DNA from: Clostridia bacterium
GTDB taxonomy: Bacteria; Bacillota; Clostridia; Christensenellales; Aristaeellaceae
NCBI GenBank assembly: GCA_024404275.1
Contig: JAKSQG010000027.1
Coordinates: 1 to 14,869, forward strand
Length of the DNA stretch: 14,869 bases
Direction of reading: 5' to 3'
Both the position numbers and the translations under genes were made by a program. Shown here one piece after another: positions 3,613 to 14,869 of this stretch; positions within the stretch are counted from its first letter, which is position 1; each line of letters starts with the position of its first letter. Under the pieces are notes generated by a model. The model saw only the letters and a program-made list of their open reading frames with translations, did no database searches and was not told where the DNA came from.

Positions 3613-3632
3613 ACGGACTGCGAAGGAGAAAA

Positions 3633-3896
3633 ATGAGCACGAGATCACATTTTATGTGCAGCCTGATCCATAACGGTGTGCTTGGCGGTGGGTTGACGCC
3701 GGATGAGAAGGGCGTTACCTTCAGAACCGGCAAGGTGACCGTTGACGCATAATACAGAAACCTCGTCATCGACAGGGGCGAAATCCGTTCACTCACGTGG
3801 AAAGGCGTGATGGCGGTGTTTGCCATGAAGAACAGGGAAGAATACCGCTTTTTGATTGTCAATAAGCGGCGGTATGTGAGAAATTACGAAGGATAA
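3633..3896 (+). pseudogene. Small PH/GRAM-like domain protein interrupted by an in-frame TAA at 3750-3752
   Basis: A GAAGGAG RBS sits at 3622-3628 and the ATG at 3633. The frame reads MSTRSHFMCSLIHNGVLGGGLTPDEKGVTFRTGKVTVDA*YRNLVIDRGEIRSLTWKGVMAVFAMKNREEYRFLIVNKRRYVRNYEG and ends in TAA at 3894-3896. Both halves are in the same frame and each is under 60 aa, so neither appears in the ORF track. The bacterial PH-like assignment comes from remembered sequence patterns only. Confidence 0.45.
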
Positions 3897-3915
3897 ACAG
3901 AAGACAATCATTTTG

Positions 3916-3950
3916 AAGATGAAGTGCGATGCATTTCATCTTTTTGTTTG
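3916..3950 (+). terminator. Rho-independent terminator after the uvrB-to-PH-like gene string
   Basis: Stem AAGATGAA (3916-3923) pairs with TTCATCTT (3935-3942) and is followed by TTTGTTTG. Confidence 0.6.
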
Positions 3951-3956
3951 ATAAGC

Positions 3957-3976
3957 ATTTAGAAAAATATCTAAAT
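3957..3976. promoter_or_regulatory. Palindromic operator copy 1 (ATTTAG-N8-CTAAAT)
   Basis: ATTTAG at 3957-3962 and CTAAAT at 3971-3976 form a perfect inverted repeat with an 8-nt spacer, just upstream of the -35 element. Confidence 0.55.
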
Positions 3977-3981
3977 ACCTA

Positions 3982-4010
3982 TTGACAGAGATCAAGCATT
4001 GATATATAAT
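3982..4010 (+). promoter_or_regulatory. Sigma-A type promoter for sdpR/sdpI
   Basis: Consensus -35 TTGACA (3982-3987), a 17-nt spacer and consensus -10 TATAAT (4005-4010), about 50 nt upstream of the sdpR ATG. Confidence 0.7.
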
Positions 4011-4030
4011 ATTTAGGCAGTCATCTAAAT
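4011..4030. promoter_or_regulatory. Palindromic operator copy 2 (ATTTAG-N8-CTAAAT)
   Basis: ATTTAG at 4011-4016 and CTAAAT at 4025-4030, with the same half-sites and spacing as copy 1. It lies immediately downstream of the -10 element, 54 bp from copy 1. Confidence 0.55.
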
Positions 4031-4061
4031 AGTTGACTGATGAAACGAAAGGAGATGTACG

Positions 4062-4337
4062 ATGAGCTTCAATGAAACGATGAAGGCTCTGGCAGATCCT
4101 ACAAGACGGGCGATATTGAATATGCTCAAGGAAGGCAGCTTGCCTGCCGGAGAGATCGCCGAAAAGTTCGATATGACCGGAGCAACGATCTCCCATCATC
4201 TGTCCACGCTGAAGAAGGCGGGGCTGGTGAATGAGGAGAGGAAAAGGAACTTTATCTTCTACACGTTGAATGCTTCCGTTCTGGAAGAGATTCTGTTGTG
4301 GATCAGCGAACTGAAAGGAGAGGAAAACAATGATTAA
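4062..4337 (+). CDS. sdpR: ArsR-family winged-helix repressor, SdpR-like autorepressor
   Basis: 91 aa. FKALADPTRRAILNMLKEGSLPAGEIAEKFDMTGATISHHLSTLKKAGLV closely resembles B. subtilis SdpR (YvbA) as I recall it. A GGAG-containing RBS lies upstream. The TAA stop overlaps the start of the next gene. Confidence 0.85.
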   Translation: MSFNETMKALADPTRRAILNMLKEGSLPAGEIAEKFDMTGATISHHLSTLKKAGLVNEERKRNFIFYTLNASVLEEILLWISELKGEENND

Positions 4338-4983
4338 GATGAACAGAGAAGAAAAAAAGGAATTGGTACTGACCACGCTGGTGTGCCTGATTCCGCTGAT
4401 CGCCGGGCTTTTGCTGTATTCGAAACTGCCGGAGGAGATGGCGATCCATTGGGATGCGCAGGGCAATGTGAACGGAACCAGCAGCAAGCTGGTGGGGACG
4501 ATTGTGCTTCCTGGCATTCTGGCGCTGCTCAACCTGATCTTCCCGATGCTGCTGCGTATCGACCCGAAATATGAAAACATGAATGGCAAGCTGAAGACAC
4601 TGACCCACTGGATCATTCCTGTGACCGCGGTTTTCTGCTCCGGAGTCACGCTTGCGGCAGCGCTTGGCGTGAAGACGCATATAGAAGTAATCGCTCCGAT
4701 GCTGGTGGGTGTACTGTTGGTTCTAATCGGCAATTATCTTCCCAAGACAAAACAGAGCTACACCATGGGCATCAAACTGCCCTGGACGCTGAACAGTGAG
4801 GAAAACTGGAATCATACCCATCGTATGGCGGGTTTCCTGTAGGTCATCGGCGGTATGGTGATGATCGTCAGTGGATTCTTTTCCTTCCGCTATATCGCTT
4901 TCATTGCGATTATGGTTGTGATGGTTGCAGTGCCTACTGTGTACTCCTATCTGTATTATAAAAAAGAGAATCATGCGAAATAA
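4330..4983 (+). CDS. sdpI: SdpI-family membrane protein (DUF1648 plus SdpI domain) with an in-frame TAG at 4840-4842; a pseudogene under standard code 11
   Basis: An AAAGGAGAGG RBS sits at 4314-4323. It has an N-terminal DUF1648-like LPEEMAIHWDAQGNVNG and the SdpI core YLPKTKQSYTMGIKLPWTLNSEENWNHTHRMAGFL. After the TAG the same frame continues as a hydrophobic helix, VIGGMVMIVSGFFSFRYIAFIAIMVVMVAVPTVYSYLYYKKENHAK, to the TAA at 4981-4983. The ORF track shows only 4330-4842. Confidence 0.8.
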
Positions 4984-5669: not shown

Positions 5670-6401
5670 TCAGTAATGATAAAGAATGGTGTTTTGCCCG
5701 GCAGTCAACGGGGAGGCGTTCCCGCTTGCATCGGGCATGAGGCCGCTGAGCAGAAAACTGAAGCTCTCGTTTTCGGCTGAGATAATGTGGTCAAACAATG
5801 TGATGCCGATGCGGCGCAGTGTTTCGTGCAATTCCAGCGTCAGCGAAACATCGGCTTCGGAGGGGGCGGCGCTGCCGCCGGGGTGATTGTGGGCGAGGAT
5901 CAACCCGCAGGCGCCGCTTTGTGTGGCGACGCTGACGATGTGCCGTGTATATACGCGTACCTATGTGGTATCGCCCGAACCGATTTGGGCTGCGCTGAGG
6001 CGTTTCATGCGCGCATCCAGACAAATGACATAGAATTTTTCGTATTTTTCCCCTTCAAACAGGGCTTCGCAGTAGCGGGCGGCGGCGGTGGGAGAAGAGA
6101 GGATCGGCGAATCCTCCTATACGCTTTTGCGGTAGGCACGGAAGAGCGGCAGCATCAGCGCAATCAGGGAGGCGGCATTGTCCCCGATGCCATCGATGGT
6201 TTGCAATTCGTCGGGCGTGGCCTGCAGTACAGCGTGGAGCGAGCCGAACCGTTGGAGCAGCGCATGGGCGATGGGATTGGTATCCCGCCGCGGGATGGCA
6301 AAGGAGAGCAGGAACTACAGCACTTCGTGCGGTGCAAACGCTTCAAGACCGGCGGTTTCAAAACGCGTCCTGAGACGCTTGCGGTGTCCTTCGTGCTGCA
6401 T
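5670..6401 (-). CDS. radC: RadC-family protein (HhH plus JAB/MPN domain) with three in-frame TAG codons; a pseudogene under code 11
   Basis: The minus-strand frame starts at the ATG at 6399-6401, with a GGAGG RBS. It reads MQHEGHRKRLRTRFETAGLEAFAPHEVL*FLLSFAIPRRDTNPIAHALLQRFGSLHAVLQATPDELQTIDGIGDNAASLIALMLPLFRAYRKSV*EDSPILSSPTAAARYCEALFEGEKYEKFYVICLDARMKRLSAAQIGSGDTT*VRVYTRHIVSVATQSGACGLILAHNHPGGSAAPSEADVSLT...DHII. The TAGs appear as CTA on + at 6315-6317, 6117-6119 and 5961-5963. The stop is TGA at 5670-5672. Confidence 0.85.
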
Positions 6402-6429
6402 ACCGGAGCCTCCTTTCGCTGATGTGTCT

Positions 6430-6458
6430 ATCATATCACACTTTATCCGATGACTCAA
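6430..6458 (-). promoter_or_regulatory. Putative radC promoter
   Basis: On the minus strand: TTGAGT (-35, 6453-6458 on +), a 17-nt spacer and TG-n-TATGAT (extended -10, hexamer at 6430-6435 on +). Confidence 0.45.
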
Positions 6459-6469
6459 CAGATTTGCGG

Positions 6470-6498
6470 TTGTTGAAACAATTCGGATATGGTAAAAT
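6470..6498 (+). promoter_or_regulatory. Putative addB promoter with extended -10
   Basis: TGgTAAAAT, with the hexamer at 6493-6498, and a weak -35 TTGTTG at 6470-6475 after a 17-nt spacer. Confidence 0.35.
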
Positions 6499-6520
6499 AA
6501 AAACACAAGGGGGCAGAATA

Positions 6521-9500
6521 ATGGTTTCGATTTATGGCGGGCGTCCCAACAGATTGTGGCCGCATCTGGTGCGGCTCATTCGTTCGGCACGTTCTGAAAA
6601 CAAAAAATGCGTGTTGATTGTGCCCGGAGATTTCACACTGCAGGCGGAGAGGGCTTTGATCCGCGATCTGGACTGCAAGGGCTTTTTTGATATAGAAGTA
6701 TATTCGCTTACCCGATTGACAGGGCAGATTTTGTCGTCCAGACCCCTCTTTGGCCGGAAAGCGATTGATGAAAACGGCAAAAACGTAGCAGTGGCCAGGG
6801 CTGTGCTGGAGCGGAAAAAGGAATTGCGTTATTTTGCCCGTATGTCGGAAAGCACGGGCTTTGTCCAGCGCTGCGGCAGCTGGATTGCCGATATGAAACT
6901 TGCTCAGATCGGTCCCGCGCAGCTGAAAAAATATGTGGATCAAATGCAGGAGGGTGCTGAGAAGGAAAAACTGAGCGATCTGAACGGCATTTTTGAAACT
7001 TATACGGCAATCCTGAGCGATAAGTTTGTGGATAATGAGGATATCCTGACGGCGTCGATTGAAGCATTGCCTGTCAGCGGCATCTTGAATGACACCGAAA
7101 CGATACTTTATGGATTTGACCGGCTGAATGAGGATTATATCCGGTTTTTATGTGCTGCAGCGCCGTTGGCGTCGCATGTGGCAGTCTATCTTGCGATGGA
7201 CCGTGAAGACGCTCCCGACGGTGATTGCTTTGAAACGGTCCGCCAAAGTGCTGAAAACCTGCGGCTGCGTCTGCGCAATCAACATCAGCAGCGGGAATGG
7301 CTCTGGATCGATGAAGAAGCAGACGACAACAGTCCCGTGGAACTCAAATGGCTGCGGGCGCATCTGCTGCAGCCCGGAGTAAAACCGTGGTCTGAGCAAT
7401 GTGACGCGGTGACTCTTTTTCAGGCTTCGGTGCCTTATGTGGAGGCACAGTACCTGACCGAAAGTGTATTTGCCCTTCTGGAAAAAGGGGTGAATCCAGA
7501 AAAAATCGTGATTCTGTGCGGACATCTGGATATCATGGAGCCGCTGCTTTCCGCTCTGTTTGCTGCCTGTGGCATACCGGCCTATTTTGATGTACAGGCG
7601 CCGCTGATTCGGCATGGATTGGCGCGGATGCTGCTGGCAGCCTGCCGTGCGGTCAACGATGGTTATCGCCCGGAGGACATGCTGGAGCTGATCAAATCGG
7701 GATACGCTCCGCTGAGGAGTCCGGAGGGTTGGGCTCTTGAAAACTATATACTGAAGAATGGCGTAACCGGGGCAAAATGGAAGACATCCTTTGACACGGA
7801 TGGCACGGATGGGGAGGTCGAAGCGGCCCGGGTCAAACTGATGGACATGCTGGAAATGCTGAAGGATGAGCTGAAAAACGCACGCACAGGTGCGGAATCC
7901 CTGACGGCTCTTGTCCATCTGATGACGAACGCGCAGGTACCGGACAGGCTGGCGGAAGTACAGGAACAGTTGACAAACGCCGGACTGGGAACGGCGGCAG
8001 TGCAGAACCGTCAGGTATGGGAAACCATCACCGGCGTACTGGAGCAGATGAACGAAATTGCCGGAGAGGAACGCATTCCCGCGGGTGTGATCACCACGTG
8101 GTTGGAAGCGGGACTGATGGGAGCAAAGCTGTCAGCACTGCCGCCTGTTTCCGGCTGTGTCACAGTGGGAGATATCGGTCGGATGATCCCCTTTGAGCCG
8201 GAGCATGTTTTCCTTTGCGGCCTGAGCGATGAAGCGGGGGCAGACCGTATCAATCTGATGAGTGAAGAAACTGTCGAAGAGATGGCAGAAAGCATGCAGG
8301 TTACCATTGGGGAGAGCCTGAAGGATGCCGACAGCATGGATGAACTGACACGGTGGAAACTGGTCTATGCTGCAAAGAAGCACCTGTATCTTTCCTATCC
8401 GCAGGCGTCTCAGGATGGCGCAGCGGCTCGCTGTGACCGTTTTGTGCAGACAGTGACGCGTTTGCTTCCGCAGATGCAGAAGGACGGCAGCCTTGCGGAA
8501 TCACCGCTGCACGCGGTGTCACCCTTGATCGCGCTCGATGAAATCGGCGTCCGCCTGCGGGAGGGGGCACTGAAGGGAGAATGGCTGAAGGCGTGGAACT
8601 GGCTGCTGATGGACGAAAAATACCGGGCAATTGCCGAACAATTGCTGGTACACGCACAGGGACGGCAGAAAACGGAGCAGTTGAGCGAAGAACGTGCCGG
8701 AAAGCTTTTCCGGGATAAGAAGATGAGCATCAGCCGACTGGAGACCTTCGCAGGTTGCCCGTATCGGCATTTTGTGCAGTATGGCTTGAAACCCAAGGAA
8801 AGATAGATGTGGGGCTTTTCGCCCATTGACAAGGGCAACTTTTATCATGCTGCCATTGAGGGCTTTACCAAAACACTGGCAGAAGAACCGGCATGGCCGA
8901 AAATCACCCGCAAAACCTGTGACCGGTTGATGGAAAAAGCGTTGGAACCGCTCGTTGAACAGTGGCGCGGCGGCTTTCTGGAGGGCAGCGCACGCGCCAG
9001 AACGGAAGGAGAACGCTACATTCGTTTGTGCAAGCGGCTGGGGTGGGTGTTTACCCGCGGGGCACAGTATTCGAACTTTAAACTATGCGGAAGCGAGATA
9101 GACTTTGGTACAGAAGGCAGCCGTATGGAGGCGCTGACGCTTGGATTGACCGATGGCTCCAAGGTACTGCTGGAAGGACGCATCGACCGTGCGGAGGAGT
9201 ATGTGAATGAAGATAAAAGATATATCCGCGTGGTCGATTATAAGTCGGGTCATAAGGAACTGAAGCCTGAACAGATTCACATCGGCATGCAATTGCAACT
9301 TTTATTGTATCTGAAGGCGATGCTGAACGACGATCCATCAGCGGTGCCCGCCGGCGCCTTTTATCAATGGATGGGTGATCCGCTGGATAAACCCGACAGC
9401 GAGAAGGATGCGGATGTGCGGCTGGTGGAAGCCCTGAAGCTTAGAGGCGTTGTGTTGGCTGATCAAGAGACGATACGCGCCATGGATGACGAGGATAATC

Positions 9501-9817
9501 CTGCATCAATGGAAAAAATGCTCAAAAAGGACGGAGCAGCGTTTGCGAATAAGCTGGCACTTCGTCTTGAATAGATGGATACCCTGATCGGAAAGGCTTG
9601 CAAGACCGCCGCAAAGCTGACAGAAGAGCTTCGAAAAGGCGAAATTGCCGCTGCTCCTGTGCGGACGGACGACACACACTGTGTTTGTGATTATTGTGCC
9701 TATGATGGCATCTGCCGCCGGGATAAAAGTGACCGCAGCAGGGAAAGAAAGCTGAAAAAAATGAGCCCGGAAGCATTGCTTCAAGCAGAAGAAACGCCCG
9801 TGACAGATCCCTTCTGA
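6521..9817 (+). CDS. addB: Helicase-nuclease AddAB/RexAB subunit B (AddB) with two in-frame TAG codons; annotated under code 11 it would be three ORFs or a pseudogene
   Basis: An AAGGGGG RBS sits at 6507-6513 and the ATG at 6521. The total is 1098 codons, a typical AddB length. Segment 1 (6521-8806) ends ...SISRLETFAGCPYRHFVQYGLKPKER, which includes the first Fe-S cysteine. Segment 2 (8807-9574) carries the RecB-type nuclease motifs GRIDRAEE...IRVVDYKSG...GMQLQLLLY. Segment 3 (9575-9817) carries CVCDYCAYDGIC, the remaining Fe-S cysteines. The TAGs are at 8804-8806 and 9572-9574, all segments share one frame, and the final stop is TGA. Confidence 0.88.
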
Positions 9818-9838
9818 TCGACAGTCGATGGATAGATT

Positions 9839-9870
9839 AAAAAAAGAACGGCTATCATGCCGTTCTTTTT
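9839..9870. terminator. Bidirectional rho-independent terminator between convergent addB and cvpA
   Basis: AAAAAAGAACGGC-tatcat-GCCGTTCTTTTT: a perfect 9-bp GC-containing stem flanked by an A-run and a T-run. Confidence 0.75.
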
Positions 9871-9887
9871 GAATGAGCCGAAGTGCG

Positions 9888-10598
9888 TCAAACACCGTTG
9901 ACAATGAGATGGAATGCCGAGTTGCTGTAGAAAAAGGACATGAGACTGCTTTCGGAAAACAGCGCCGTTACCTGACGCACCGGAATGACGGTGAGAACAA
10001 TGGGCGTCAACTGACAGATGACAAAAACGACAACGGCTCCGCGCAGAAGCCCGAAGATGGCGGCAGTGATGCTTTCACCATGGCGCAGCAGCGGGAAATA
10101 GGTTGTATGACCGATGGCGTTGATGACGGTATGCAGCACCACAAAGCAGAGAAAGAAGCAAATCGTATAGGAAAGGGATTGGATGACCGCCATGACAACG
10201 GTGTGGGAAACATACTCGTTGACGGTGGAAAGACCGAACGGAGCGAGCGAAAGCGATTGCATGTTGGCCCGAAGCAGGGACTCGATGCCGATAGGGAGGC
10301 CGACACCCTTCATGACGCTTTCAAGCGCTGTGCCTGTCAGCCCGGCAGCTGGGGACATGGCCAGGGAATAGTCACCTACCAGTGATCCGGCATCGGTGTA
10401 GGTAACCAACAATTGCATAACGGCCTTGTTCCGGCTGAGCAGTTGAACCAACTGCGGGTAGAATAGTCCCGCCAGCAAAAGGCTGAGAAGGGAAACAAAG
10501 AATCCAAGCGCGGAGGATACCGACCCTCTGTATAGCGAAAAGATGACGCTGGCGACGAGGATCAGCAGTAAAAACAGATCAATGATGTTCATGGTCAT
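9888..10598 (-). CDS. cvpA: CvpA-family (colicin V production-like) integral membrane protein
   Basis: 236 aa with multiple TM helices. The N-terminus MNIIDLFLLLILVASVIFSLYRGSVSSALGF is typical of the CvpA family. Its ATG overlaps the upstream gene's TGA (ATGA at 10595-10600). Confidence 0.8.
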   Translation of the reverse strand: MTMNIIDLFLLLILVASVIFSLYRGSVSSALGFFVSLLSLLLAGLFYPQLVQLLSRNKAVMQLLVTYTDAGSLVGDYSLAMSPAAGLTGTALESVMKGVGLPIGIESLLRANMQSLSLAPFGLSTVNEYVSHTVVMAVIQSLSYTICFFLCFVVLHTVINAIGHTTYFPLLRHGESITAAIFGLLRGAVVVFVICQLTPIVLTVIPVRQVTALFSESSLMSFFYSNSAFHLIVNGV

Positions 10599-11704
10599 CA
10601 GGGAAGCACGACGGCATAGACAGAAGCACCGCTGGCCAACAGGGCACAGCCGTTGGAAGTGATTCCGAGGAAGGCGGTAACGTTGCCGTTGACGGGGATA
10701 TCCAGTCCGGTGAAACGGTTATCGCTGATATCGGCACGGTAAATACCGGAGGCGGAGAAAGCATAGACCTTGTTCTTGTACAAAGCGGCACCGACACATT
10801 CGGAAGGAAGCGTGTAGCGGGTGTCATTTGTACCCTTGAGCAGGCGCAGTTCGGTAAAGCCGCTGCCGTTCTCCACCTGCTGTACAGGCGTGAAGAGCAG
10901 GTAGGCGGAGGAGCCGTTTGTCAGGGAGCTGACGAGCTGCCAGCCGTAGACGGTGGCGGCACCGGCGGGATTTTCAGTGCCGTGGTAATCAAACTGGCGC
11001 AGCTCACGCGTATCGATGACATTGAGCGTGCTTCCGCAGTAGACAACGGAATAGGGCAGACGCTGGCCGAGGTTGGCAGAACCGGTGTTCATCTGTCCGG
11101 CACGGTAAGTGATGAGCGAGGATTGAGGAACAGTGCCGTAAACATCCAGCGAGGTGGTCCAAATGTAGGAACCATCCCCGAAGAAGCCGCAGTCCAACAG
11201 CATGACGTCTTCGTAGTTGTTGCTTTCTGTATCGATGACAGAACCGTTGACATCGATAATCGTCAGCGTGGGGCTGATGTTATCGCCGGTTACCACGGCG
11301 ACATACTTTTCGCCGGTACGGGCGAACTGAATGGTGTCGCCGAGCATGTTGTTGTAGGTGGCGTGACCGTTACGGTCGAGGATCTGCAGCTGACGGCCGC
11401 TCCAGACGGAAATGTAACGGGAACCGGCGTCGAACTGCGCGCCGTTGCCGATGGAAACGCTCCACACCTCCGCACCGGAGCTGGTCAGACAGAACAGTGT
11501 TCCATTGCTGTAATACAGCACACGATCACCGAAGACCGTCACATTCTGATTGACCTGACAGCGCAGGGAATAGGTTTTGATCTTGGAACTGCCCATGTAC
11601 TGGGAAACAAGATAGACCATCAGTACGATAAACACAGCGGCGAGAACAATGATCAGTGCCGCCATGGGTGTTCTTTTTTTCTGCTCGGAACGATAACGCG
11701 GCAT
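10598..11704 (-). CDS. Membrane-anchored repeat protein, probably beta-propeller-like; resembles the DUF5711 family
   Basis: 368 aa. It has a basic N-terminus and a single TM helix (MAALIIVLAAVFIVLMVYLV), followed by a Gly/Ser/Thr/Tyr-rich beta-type ectodomain. It is translationally coupled to cvpA and has an AGGAGG RBS. The family assignment is from memory. Confidence 0.6.
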   Translation of the reverse strand: MPRYRSEQKKRTPMAALIIVLAAVFIVLMVYLVSQYMGSSKIKTYSLRCQVNQNVTVFGDRVLYYSNGTLFCLTSSGAEVWSVSIGNGAQFDAGSRYISVWSGRQLQILDRNGHATYNNMLGDTIQFARTGEKYVAVVTGDNISPTLTIIDVNGSVIDTESNNYEDVMLLDCGFFGDGSYIWTTSLDVYGTVPQSSLITYRAGQMNTGSANLGQRLPYSVVYCGSTLNVIDTRELRQFDYHGTENPAGAATVYGWQLVSSLTNGSSAYLLFTPVQQVENGSGFTELRLLKGTNDTRYTLPSECVGAALYKNKVYAFSASGIYRADISDNRFTGLDIPVNGNVTAFLGITSNGCALLASGASVYAVVLP

Positions 11705-11730
11705 AAGTACCTCCTGAAATCGCTGAGGAT

Positions 11731-11760
11731 ATTATAATCGAAAGGGGCCGCACGCGTCAA
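11731..11760 (-). promoter_or_regulatory. Putative promoter for the DUF5711-like/cvpA pair
   Basis: On the minus strand: TTGACG (-35, 11755-11760 on +), an 18-nt spacer and TATAAT (-10, 11731-11736 on +), within the 72-nt gap after the SNF2 gene's stop. Confidence 0.55.
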
Positions 11761-11776
11761 CAATAAAGGAAGATCA

Positions 11777-14700
11777 TCAATCCTCGAACAGCCGGAGCAG
11801 GTCCTCATCCGAAAGTTTGGTGGGGATACTCTCGCCGGGGGTAATCAGCTTGTCGAACAGCTTGCGCTTGCTCTGACTCATGTTGACGACCTGTTCCTCA
11901 ATGGAATCGTGAACCAGCAAACGGATGACTTCCACCTCTTTGGTCTGGCCGATACGGTGAGCACGGTCGACGGCCTGTTCCTCGGCAGCGGGGTTCCACC
12001 ACGGGTCATAGTGAATGACCATATCGGCACCGGTCAGGTTCAATCCCGTGCCGCCGGCTTTGAGCGACAGCAGGAAGACATTGCCGTGGCCGCCGTTGAA
12101 GCTCTCACAAAGACGGACACGCTCGTCAGCAGGGGTTTCACCGTCCAGATAAAGGCAGCCGATGCCTTCCTGACTGAGACGCTGCTCGATGAGGCGCAGC
12201 ATGCGTGTGAACTGGGAAAAGACCAATGCACGGCGGCCGTTTTGCAGGGCGGGAATCAGAATATCCACAAGCATTTCCAGCTTGCCGGATGCGGCGGTGT
12301 AATCGTTCAGGCACAAAGCCGGATGGCAGCAGATCTGACGCAATTCGGTGATGGCACTGAGCACTTCGGCACGGCCTTTGGCCATGCCGCGGGTGGTAAG
12401 AATCTGACGCACATAATCGCGCCGGCGCAGCAGGCTGGCCGAATAGACCTTTCGCTGCTCGGCAGACATTTCGGCCATCATGATCCGCTCGAGTTTGTCG
12501 GGCAGCTCGGTCAGCACATCCTTCTTGAGGCGGCGCATCAGGAAAGGACGGATGCGCTGCATCAGTTCCTCGCTGTTTTCACCTTCGCCGTAACGGTGCA
12601 TGAAAGCGGAAACACGCGGCAGGTAACCGGGAAGAATAAAGTCAAAAATACTCCACAACTCACCCGCGTGGTTTTCCATGGGCGTACCGGTCAAAGCGAT
12701 GCGGGTTTCGGCTTTGATGGTCTTGACTGCGTGAGCCGCCACACTGGAGGCGTTCTTGATCTGCTGCGCCTCATCCAGCACGGCAAAACGGAAGGTCACC
12801 TCGGACAGAAGCGGTGCATCGCGGCGGATCAGCGGATAACTGGTCAGTACGATGTCGGGTGCTTTGGAGGAGGAAAGACGTTCGATCTGCTCGGCACGGG
12901 TCAGCTGACTGCCGCTGATGAGCATGACATCCAGCTCGGGAGCAAAGCGTTTGAACTCACTCAGCCAGTTGTAGGTCAGCGAAGTGGGGGAAACGATGAC
13001 AGAGGGTTTACGTTCCGGTTCGGTACGGATGTAGAACAGTAGGGCGGCGATGGTCTGAATGGTTTTGCCAAGGCCCATATCATCGGCCAGAATGCCGCCC
13101 ATGTGCAGGGAATGCAAGGCGCAGAGCCACTCGAAGCCGCGCTGCTGATAGGGGCGAAGGCAGGTAAGCGGCGATTTTACCTCGGCGACTTCCATGCGGG
13201 CGGCACGCTGTGCTTCCTCGTCCAGCGTGACAGGCAGGTGATGGGCACGGATGAGCGCTTCCATATAGGAAGCACGGTACATGCCCATTTCCTGCGTGCC
13301 GGTCAGCTCGTTCGATTCGCAGACGGCTTCTGCCAGTGGCTGCCAGTCGTCGGTATCTTCCAGTGAAATGAAGGAACCATCCTTGAAACGGAAATAGGAG
13401 GAACGGTCGCGAAGAGCACGCATGAGCGGCAGCAGTTCCTCAGTGATTTCGTCATCCTGCAGCAGATCGAGCTTCAATTGGCCGCCTGCACCGCGCAGCA
13501 TGCCGGTAAGGCGGGGCTTACGGGGGGTGAGTTTTTTGAAATCGTTGCTGAAAAATACCTCGGCATAGTGTGTCAGCTCGCCGTCGCCTTCGGAGACAAA
13601 ACGATAGATCTCATCATTGCCGCTCAGATAGACAAGACCGCCGGAAACACGGAAGCCGGCGTTGGCGAGCACTTCGGTCACTTCCTGCTCATGCTGCGCG
13701 TCACGCAGCAGCAGTGGAGAAACACTGTCGTTGGGGGCAGCGAAGGGATCGATCACGGTATCGCCGTAAACAAATTCCGTGCGGGCGGTGACACCGACGC
13801 CCTCACGATCTAGGTAGACCCGTGCACGGAAGGGTTCCCGGATCAGTTGGCATTCCAGCTGGGGAGCGAAGCGCAGATCACCGATGCGGCTCAGCCAGAG
13901 CACAAGCTGGCTCATGACACGCCCGGTGCGGGCGGGTTCGAACAGAAACTCCGTGACGCCGTTGATGCGGTCTTTGACACACAGGCCGGCGACAGCTCGC
14001 TGCGCTTCGGGGACGCGCGTGACATAACCATCGACCAGTGCGTAGGAGCAGTCGGCTGTCAAAGGGATGAAATCACTGTCAAAACCCGCTTCGATGCACA
14101 GATGATGGACACCCTGGCGCGCCCGGTCGGACAGCGTAAAGGTGAGCGGAAGAGGATCGGTCTTGACCCCTTGCTGCGCAATGGCGGTGGTGCCGACCTG
14201 CAGGCGATAATCCAACCGCTCCAGAAGTTCCCAGACACGGGCAGCGGTGGTCTGCGGCAGGGGCATCATGCGTGCATCCTGAATGCCGATGGAAATACCG
14301 GCAAAACGCAGCGTATCACAGTGGGAACGCAGAATTTGCAAAAGTTCTTTTTGCGGCGCGGGAAAACGCATCCAGTCGGCGAAAAAGGTAAAGCCTTTGC
14401 CGACCTGCAGGGAACGGTTGCCGTCGATGGTGTCCAGCAATTCGGGGATGGAGCGCACCACATACATACGGTCCTGACCGATGCGCAGTCCAATGCTGAA
14501 GGAAGAGGGGGTAATGCGAAGCTCAGGCTCAAGACGAATCAGGGTGGATTCGGGCAGCGCGTATTCCATCATAGAGAACAGGGTCTCGGAACGTTCCTTG
14601 GCCTGCAGTTCCTTGAGGGATTTGAGGGCTCCTGATTCTCCGGCAGAGAGCAAGGCGGCGAGAAGATGGCGGCAGCGGGGAGAGGCGTCGCAGCTGCATT

Positions 14701-14869
14701 CGCCGCTGCCATTGGCAAACAAGTGCACTTCATTGCGTACGCCAGCCACTGAGTAGGAAATATATTCGGGGCAGCGCTTGTTTTCAGTCACCGCACCGCG
14801 GCGGTAAAGCATTCTGCCTGCATCAAATTCTTCGTTTCCGAAGCGTTCCAGTAATCTGGTTACATCCAT
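11777..14869 (-). CDS. SNF2-family DEAD/H helicase with an N-terminal SWIM zinc finger; the start is at or beyond the window edge
   Basis: At least 1030 aa. SWIM CxC..CxH motif (GECSCDASPRCRHLLAALL), SNF2 motif I (GGILADDMGLGKTIQTIA), motif II DEAQ (VLDEAQQIKN) and helicase C motif VI (QAVDRAHRIGQTKEVEVIRL). An ATG falls exactly on the last 3 bases of the window, so the true start is uncertain. The stop is TGA. Confidence 0.9.
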   Translation of the reverse strand: MDVTRLLERFGNEEFDAGRMLYRRGAVTENKRCPEYISYSVAGVRNEVHLFANGSGECSCDASPRCRHLLAALLSAGESGALKSLKELQAKERSETLFSMMEYALPESTLIRLEPELRITPSSFSIGLRIGQDRMYVVRSIPELLDTIDGNRSLQVGKGFTFFADWMRFPAPQKELLQILRSHCDTLRFAGISIGIQDARMMPLPQTTAARVWELLERLDYRLQVGTTAIAQQGVKTDPLPLTFTLSDRARQGVHHLCIEAGFDSDFIPLTADCSYALVDGYVTRVPEAQRAVAGLCVKDRINGVTEFLFEPARTGRVMSQLVLWLSRIGDLRFAPQLECQLIREPFRARVYLDREGVGVTARTEFVYGDTVIDPFAAPNDSVSPLLLRDAQHEQEVTEVLANAGFRVSGGLVYLSGNDEIYRFVSEGDGELTHYAEVFFSNDFKKLTPRKPRLTGMLRGAGGQLKLDLLQDDEITEELLPLMRALRDRSSYFRFKDGSFISLEDTDDWQPLAEAVCESNELTGTQEMGMYRASYMEALIRAHHLPVTLDEEAQRAARMEVAEVKSPLTCLRPYQQRGFEWLCALHSLHMGGILADDMGLGKTIQTIAALLFYIRTEPERKPSVIVSPTSLTYNWLSEFKRFAPELDVMLISGSQLTRAEQIERLSSSKAPDIVLTSYPLIRRDAPLLSEVTFRFAVLDEAQQIKNASSVAAHAVKTIKAETRIALTGTPMENHAGELWSIFDFILPGYLPRVSAFMHRYGEGENSEELMQRIRPFLMRRLKKDVLTELPDKLERIMMAEMSAEQRKVYSASLLRRRDYVRQILTTRGMAKGRAEVLSAITELRQICCHPALCLNDYTAASGKLEMLVDILIPALQNGRRALVFSQFTRMLRLIEQRLSQEGIGCLYLDGETPADERVRLCESFNGGHGNVFLLSLKAGGTGLNLTGADMVIHYDPWWNPAAEEQAVDRAHRIGQTKEVEVIRLLVHDSIEEQVVNMSQSKRKLFDKLITPGESIPTKLSDEDLLRLFED

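Follow-up and report, generated by a model that had tools for sequence, protein, structure and literature searches.

In-frame TAG codons in addB and in two unrelated genes point to UAG being read as sense in a narrow lineage of uncultured Clostridia

Results

Two TAG codons interrupt addB

The DNA analysed here (the window) is a 14,869-nucleotide stretch of contig JAKSQG010000027.1 of an uncultured Clostridia bacterium, and the gene in question is its addB, coding for an AddB-type helicase-nuclease subunit. The gene lies on the forward strand at positions 6521-9817 and forms one open reading frame (ORF) of 1098 codons in which there are two in-frame TAGs. It starts with an ATG at 6521, with AAGGGGG 6 nt upstream, and stops with a TGA at 9815-9817. 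The first in-frame TAG (TAG-1; codon 762, 8804-8806) is followed immediately by an ATG at 8807-8809 in the context aga TAG ATG tgg (8801-8812); the second (TAG-2; codon 1018, 9572-9574) is followed by an ATG at 9575-9577 in the context gaa TAG ATG gat (9569-9580). Both of these A-TAG-ATG junctions had been pointed out in a preliminary description of the sequence and can be read there directly. NCBI and Prodigal annotate the pieces of addB as separate genes.

The residues expected to build the nuclease domain and its iron-sulphur (Fe-S) cluster are distributed over all three pieces, as had also been described. The first Fe-S ligand, Cys746 (FAGCPY; codon at 8756-8758, forward strand), is in piece 1, upstream of TAG-1. 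The RecB-type nuclease motifs GRIDR (886), VVDYK (904) and QLQLLLY (924), encoded at 9176-9310 on the same strand, are in piece 2, between the TAGs, and the CxxCx5C cysteines Cys1056, Cys1059 and Cys1065, which lie within CVCDYCAYDGIC (9686-9715, forward strand), are in piece 3, downstream of TAG-2. These residues are well conserved: the Cys746 column is cysteine in 18/18 ungapped homologues, the CxxCx5C columns are cysteine in 19-20 of 22 homologues (18-20 of 22 when all four Fe-S cysteines are considered), and the nuclease residues D244, Y245, K246 and Q264, in the numbering of alignment A1, are invariant. The preliminary description was right that AddB can work only if both TAGs are read through or three chains assemble.

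The assignment of the gene to addB was borne out. The read-through product matches Pfam ADDB_N (142 bits) and PDDEXK_1 (model positions 2-247 of 247, 121.5 bits), and it aligns end to end with Bacillus subtilis AddB (3U44_B; residues 27-1085 against 32-1151, E 5.9e-85). Since its score against TIGR02773 (addB_Gpos), at 505.6 bits, is under the equivalog cutoff of 903.7, the product is, as judged from its sequence, best labelled a divergent AddB-type protein; its relatives are named "PD-(D/E)XK nuclease family protein" by NCBI. Its N-terminus (6521-6600) reads GGRPNRLW and has no GK[ST] Walker A, where a motif of the form GxxGxGK[ST] would be expected from B. subtilis AddB.

Conservation of the TAGs and selection on addB

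The lineage is represented by two metagenome-assembled genomes (MAGs), one of the window species (GCA_024500545.1) and one of a sister species, "Clostridia bacterium SGB_3710" (GCA_045599485.1), and the sample from it amounts to around 36 kb and around 9,500 codons. The sister species contributes contig JAZRWA010000097.1 (L002/L095; 89.5% nucleotide identity). Two further assemblies were compared: a contig from ENA ERZ27247129 (L001; 97.9% nucleotide identity to the window) and one from Logan SRR21150928 (L004). A search of the genome collection for further sequence of the lineage returned L002 only, and a metagenome scan with UvrB gave nothing above 73% identity; looking up 2-Hacid_dh and addB piece 2 brought no record.

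TAG-2 is present in four independent assemblies (the window/GCA_024500545.1, L001, L004 and L002) and TAG-1 in two (the window and L001). The comparison with related addB genes that had been proposed proved informative. In the sister species junction 1 reads GAG CTG (Glu-Leu), so that pieces 1 and 2 run on as a single ORF. Among homologues the TAG-1 column holds R8, K4, E4, Q1 and A1, and the TAG-2 column E9, R5, Q4, D3 and K1. The position following TAG-1 is CTG in the sister species and E/P elsewhere, and that following TAG-2 is methionine in 10/22 homologues and leucine in 12/22. As none of the 22 homologues has any other residue in this last column, the ATG after TAG-2 appears to be an ancestral internal methionine; only the ATG after TAG-1 would then be new, and from the alignment neither TAG-1 nor its ATG seems to be ancestral. 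The preliminary description had held that two TAG-ATG pairs in one gene are unlikely by chance. That argument is weaker than it was stated, as the junction 2 methionine appears ancestral and a single ATG is left to be explained; when the four in-frame TAGs of the lineage are considered, the chance of one unexplained ATG among three sites is around 0.09 at a methionine frequency of around 3%.

An AAGGA is present at 8795-8799, 7 nt ahead of the ATG at 8807, as had been noted, and its resemblance to a Shine-Dalgarno (SD) sequence is real. As an SD it did not stand up: its letters are part of the codons for the conserved Lys-Glu in KPKER, and L002, which lacks both the stop and the start at this junction, has them unchanged. 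No SD had been seen ahead of the second ATG, and none is present at junction 2.

All three pieces of addB are under strong purifying selection. Nei-Gojobori dN/dS values between the window and L002 are 0.069, 0.058 and 0.123 for pieces 1, 2 and 3 respectively, at a dS of around 0.55. TAG-2 would, from its presence in both genomes, predate the split of the window species and L002; the low dN/dS together with TAG-2 in both species thus suggests that translation of, and selection on, the sequence after each TAG go back further than the separation of the two species. In a confident AlphaFold2 model of addB (pLDDT 85.5) TAG-1 falls in a loop (95-105) and TAG-2 in a linker just before a helix (358-376). 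Such predicted placement would fit the tolerance of an odd residue and a split protein alike. There is no special RNA structure 3' of the TAGs, where folding z-scores are -0.7 to -1.1, like those of control coding segments.

In-frame TAGs in two other genes

A DUF1648/SdpI-family membrane protein gene on the forward strand of the window (4330-4983; stop TAA at 4981-4983) is interrupted at 4840-4842 by an in-frame TAG, after which comes GTC. When translation is stopped at this TAG the SdpI domain is matched over model positions 1-31 of 71 (41.8 bits), and when it is read through over 1-71 of 71 (68.4 bits). The homologues (n=150, around 210 aa) cross the site as single ORFs and have W103, F19, M7, Y7 and L4 in the TAG column; the glycine at +4 of the TAG is present in 142/150 of them, and the TAG itself is retained in L001. 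Between the window and L001 (60-443), strains that are otherwise around 98% identical, the N-terminal 130 or so residues of this protein (window 4330-4725) are only around 50% identical, and the C-terminal 85 or so residues, the TAG included, are nearly identical. It looks like a recombination breakpoint near window position 4726 has joined two alleles, in both of which the frames are intact. The roughly 700 nt between the NUDIX and SdpI genes (3613-4329) have no family match. A minus-strand ORF of 265 aa (3936-4733) overlaps the SdpI gene by 404 nt; it is probably spurious, or shorter than listed, and was excluded from the stop-codon tally below.

The fourth TAG is in the sister genome, in a Cof-type HAD hydrolase gene (L095 15570-16400; TAG at 15870-15872, then CTT). 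Read through, this gene matches Hydrolase_3 over 1-255 of 255 model positions (152.8 bits); as separate pieces it matches 1-91 and 145-255. Alignments to PDB entries show only that the TAG column is a variable position. The nearest ATGs lie 5 and 12 codons from the TAGs of the SdpI and HAD genes.

In total there are therefore four in-frame TAGs in three unrelated genes (two in addB, one each in the SdpI and HAD genes), and the 9,500 or so lineage codons contain neither TGA nor TAA in frame and show no frameshift. The peptide contexts of the sites, with X for the TAG, are GLKPKER-X-MWGFSPIDK, LALRLE-X-MDTLIGK, MAGFL-X-VIGGMVMIVSGFFSFR and AYEIVRP-X-LEFFELFANGEIMVDR. The Pfam domains PDDEXK_1, SdpI and Hydrolase_3 are complete only with the TAG read through, and each of the four TAGs is followed by a purine or is at a permissive site.

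TAG as a terminator in the lineage and its relatives

The 24 scored genes of the lineage terminate with TAA (12) or TGA (12) and never with TAG. TAG accounts for 20.1% of terminators in 80 UvrB-anchored loci from other bacteria, called with the same crude gene caller, and for 17.9% at 50-60% GC; given this background, the probability of 0/24 is 0.005-0.009. In sister lineages (74-77% HprK identity) TAG terminators are also few, at 1/11, 0/17 and 0/11, and no in-frame TAG was found in the called genes of L011-L014 and L096-L098. The in-frame TAG trait is, so far as visible, confined to the window species and the sister species. The distribution suggests that a shift in stop-codon usage may be clade-wide and older than the in-frame TAGs. 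TAA is the dominant stop in the sister lineages even at 58-59% GC (12/17 in L012, 8/11 in L096). The sole TAG-terminated gene among their 39 or so called genes, L011 2043-3005 (minus strand), has an in-frame TGA two codons further on; read-through would add two residues, and this TAG is ambiguous between stop and sense.

The amino acid at the TAG sites

The aligned columns do not single out one inserted amino acid: the summed log-odds over three TAG columns are W +0.39, R -0.12, E -0.32 and Q -0.76, so that the best is only +0.39, and the columns disagree. The scatter could reflect a young reassignment, with the TAGs arising as tolerated missense changes; alternatively it could reflect a non-standard residue such as pyrrolysine (Pyl), or ambiguous near-cognate decoding. 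No pyl gene was found in the lineage loci. No suppressor tRNA was found near the locus. A second tRNA-like string in the sister locus L096 was rejected as a candidate, being only a duplicated 3' end of tRNA-Arg. In that locus tRNA-Arg(ACG) lies at 11540-11616, and its last 24 or so nucleotides (GTCGAATCCCGCGGGGCGCGCCA) are repeated around 110 nt downstream (11726-11765), as also in L097 and L098. The duplicated end resembles the attachment-site scar of an integrated element, and a long AT-rich inverted repeat (L096 11806-11907) comes after it.

Discussion

UAG as a sense codon

We consider it likely that UAG is decoded as sense across a narrow lineage of Clostridia and is not an efficient terminator there. 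This reading is favoured because one cause covers all of the observations: the TAGs inside addB, the SdpI gene and the HAD gene, the selection on the sequence that follows those in addB and the absence of TAG terminators. Of the two possibilities raised in the preliminary description it is read-through that is supported, and, because in-frame TAGs are also found in the SdpI and HAD genes, as a property of the lineage and not of addB specifically, a reading that the preliminary description, being confined to one gene, did not raise. AddB would then be a single chain of around 125 kDa with its Fe-S-stapled nuclease domain intact, and the ATGs after both of its TAGs would be ordinary internal methionines.

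The ribosome would, on this account, translate UAG wherever it is present in the lineage, with a CUA-anticodon tRNA as decoder. Release factor 1 (RF1) would probably have been weakened or lost as well, and is presumably gone or disabled. The clade-wide fall of TAG terminators would have come first, as in the codon-capture route, and TAG codons would now be re-entering at permissive positions by single-base changes such as GAG to TAG and TGG to TAG. A stronger claim, to which we would give even chances, is that this is the first cellular bacterial lineage with UAG as sense genome-wide: uncultured Clostridia, at the level of a genus, seen soon after the code changed.

Several points weigh against UAG being sense. 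The density of TAG is low, at around 1 per 2,400 codons, and the sample is small, at around 36 kb from two MAGs. The genome's codon usage is such that half of the one-step nonsense mutations lead to TAG, so that 4/4 TAG has P = 0.06 and tells only mildly for a sense codon. Neither the SdpI nor the HAD gene has a diverged comparator, and the TAG in either could be a recent nonsense mutation. The terminator counts of the related lineages share orthologous genes and are not fully independent. A tRNA(CUA) was not seen in the lineage loci, which hold no tRNA gene of any kind. The three columns disagree, pointing to Trp in SdpI and to Arg/Lys/Glu and Glu/Arg/Gln in addB. Finally, the prior is low, because large screens report no bacterial UAG reassignment.

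Other explanations of the TAGs

The alternative put forward in the preliminary description was that ribosomes terminate at each TAG and start again at the ATG next to it, which would yield polypeptides of around 87, 29 and 9 kDa assembling around the Fe-S cluster. The SdpI and HAD TAGs would then have to be unrelated, recent pseudogene mutations. An ATG does directly follow both addB TAGs, all that separates the window from L002 at junction 1 is one change to a stop and one to a start (GAG CTG to TAG ATG), the structural model places both junctions in loops or linkers, which may tolerate a split, and purifying selection on all of the pieces would be expected here too. Against this, the ATG of junction 2 falls in the family-conserved M/L column, and the supposed SD is coding sequence identical in L002, with none at junction 2. 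The stop-start of junction 1 is absent in L002, though junction 2 is kept. An ATG comes next at just two of the four TAGs; after those of the SdpI and HAD genes stand GTC and CTT, with no start codon adjoining, and a restart there would remove conserved residues, including the glycine at +4 in SdpI. Furthermore, restart needs TAG-only pseudogenes in 2 of around 24 otherwise intact genes and an absence of TAG terminators by chance (P ~0.01). We regard it as unlikely. Decay of addB and the other TAG genes, with an intact addB or rexB elsewhere, is highly improbable. It is favoured by the fact that nonsense mutations of the ordinary kind turn TGG or GAG into TAG in one step, and by the listing of the pieces as separate genes by NCBI and Prodigal, but dN/dS is 0.06-0.12 downstream of the TAGs at a dS of around 0.55, TAG-2 is kept in two species with no frameshifts and no other stops, and every catalytic and Fe-S residue is intact. 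On the dN/dS values in particular, pseudogene decay of addB is strongly disfavoured.

It is also conceivable that UAG is read as Pyl genome-wide, which would make the lineage the bacterial equivalent of the archaeal "Code 34" and would call for pylT, pylS and pylBCD. Pyl machinery is carried by some anaerobic Firmicutes. A bulky uncharged lysine derivative may suit both the Trp column at a membrane interface and the surface Lys/Arg/Glu columns, and if the residue is Pyl this would be why no standard amino acid fits all of the columns. Besides genome-wide UAG-to-Pyl, no prokaryotic cellular code with UAG as sense is known, but reports of Pyl in bacteria are limited to a few methyltransferases and a single serine dehydratase (bioRxiv 10.1101/2024.09.30.615893). 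Within the 36 kb there is neither a pyl gene nor a tRNA, and no structure follows the TAGs, although the PYLIS element is not obligatory. Pyl decoding is, on balance, decidedly improbable. That the TAGs are a sequencing or assembly artefact has a next to negligible probability; every source is a metagenome assembly, but the same TAGs recur in as many as four assemblies, made independently with different samples and pipelines, and this recurrence refutes sequencing error for practical purposes.

Relation to known codes and systems

All known bacterial stop-codon reassignments involve UGA (PMC8629427; gTranslate preprint; PMC13462651), and a literature search for a bacterial genome-wide code with UAG as sense found no report. 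The UGA codes of bacteria (table 4, UGA to Trp, in Mycoplasmatales, some endosymbionts and Eggerthellaceae; table 25, UGA to Gly, in Gracilibacteria and Absconditabacteria) are like the present lineage in that a stop codon lies inside conserved genes, is unused as a terminator and is inherited by a clade. They differ in the codon, which in the lineage is UAG, so that RF1 and not RF2 would be expected to be affected, and in the density of recoded codons, which is far lower in the lineage, where coding density under table 11 is hardly changed.

Genome-wide UAG-to-Pyl is described as confined to archaea, TAG otherwise being a stop in bacteria (bioRxiv 10.1101/2024.09.30.615893, Kivenson et al.). 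Archaeal Genetic Code 34 resembles the lineage in having UAG as sense in the housekeeping genes of a prokaryote, with few and variable in-frame TAGs and a sporadic, genus-level spread. In the "Category 1" logic applied to that code, a site qualifies through homology that flanks the TAG and a long extension beyond it, and all four lineage sites qualify. Code 34 is, however, known only in archaea with Pyl machinery, whereas the lineage is bacterial and known here from around 36 kb.

TAG to Gln occurs in gut phages, as code 15 of crAss-like and other phages (PMC9523058, PMC7886860), and there too TAG is read in a gut-associated genome. Code 15 usually comes with a suppressor tRNA. The phages recode late genes, whereas the lineage genes are chromosomal housekeeping genes with uvrB, asnS, hprK and glgP as neighbours, and the TAG columns of the lineage do not point to Gln.

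The AddB of B. subtilis (PDB 3U44, 3U4Q, 4CEH) has the same order, ADDB_N and then a RecB-type nuclease stapled by a four-cysteine Fe-S cluster. The lineage AddB differs from it in scoring under the equivalog cutoff, in having no GK[ST] Walker A, in that addA is not adjacent and in its two in-frame TAGs. Translational coupling or reinitiation at stop-start sites (PMC7518266) shares with addB a stop abutting an ATG, as TAGATG. In the lineage, in contrast, the sister species has not kept the arrangement, it is missing at the other two TAGs, and the junctions are within one protein domain instead of between genes.

If UAG is indeed sense in this bacterium, it would be a new natural genetic code, UAG reassignment being so far found in phages, eukaryotes and, as Pyl, some archaea. 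It would be a natural counterpart of engineered RF1-free E. coli and might provide a new orthogonal tRNA/synthetase pair. The low density of recoded codons would offer a rare early-stage snapshot with which to compare the codon-capture and ambiguous-intermediate models. It would also mean that table 11 silently mis-annotates such genomes, with split genes and false pseudogenes. Since heuristics based on coding density would miss this, other cases of UAG as sense may be hidden in MAG collections.

Neighbouring genes and other features

Upstream of addB (5787-6520) is orf211, an ORF of 211 aa with no assigned function, and downstream (9818-10598) is the side of the convergent cvpA. No addA or UvrD-type gene adjoins addB in the window. 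Between the convergent addB and cvpA a hairpin, aagaacggc/gccgttctt with flanking A and T runs, can be read directly off the sequence at 9844-9870; it was not flagged in a terminator consensus scan. From its letters it is likely to be a bidirectional terminator, and addB would therefore have no downstream partner gene.

The window ends at 14867-14869 with the ATG of a gene for a 1030-aa SNF2-family helicase (11777-14869, minus strand), and the alignment with L002 stops there too. In the sister lineages a gene pair, ZorA-like and OmpA-domain, is directly upstream of hprK (L011 7213-9823, L012 5790-8377, L096 5271-7881). The pair resembles the Zorya defence system; the TAG-containing lineage has glgP and the SNF2 helicase gene in that place.

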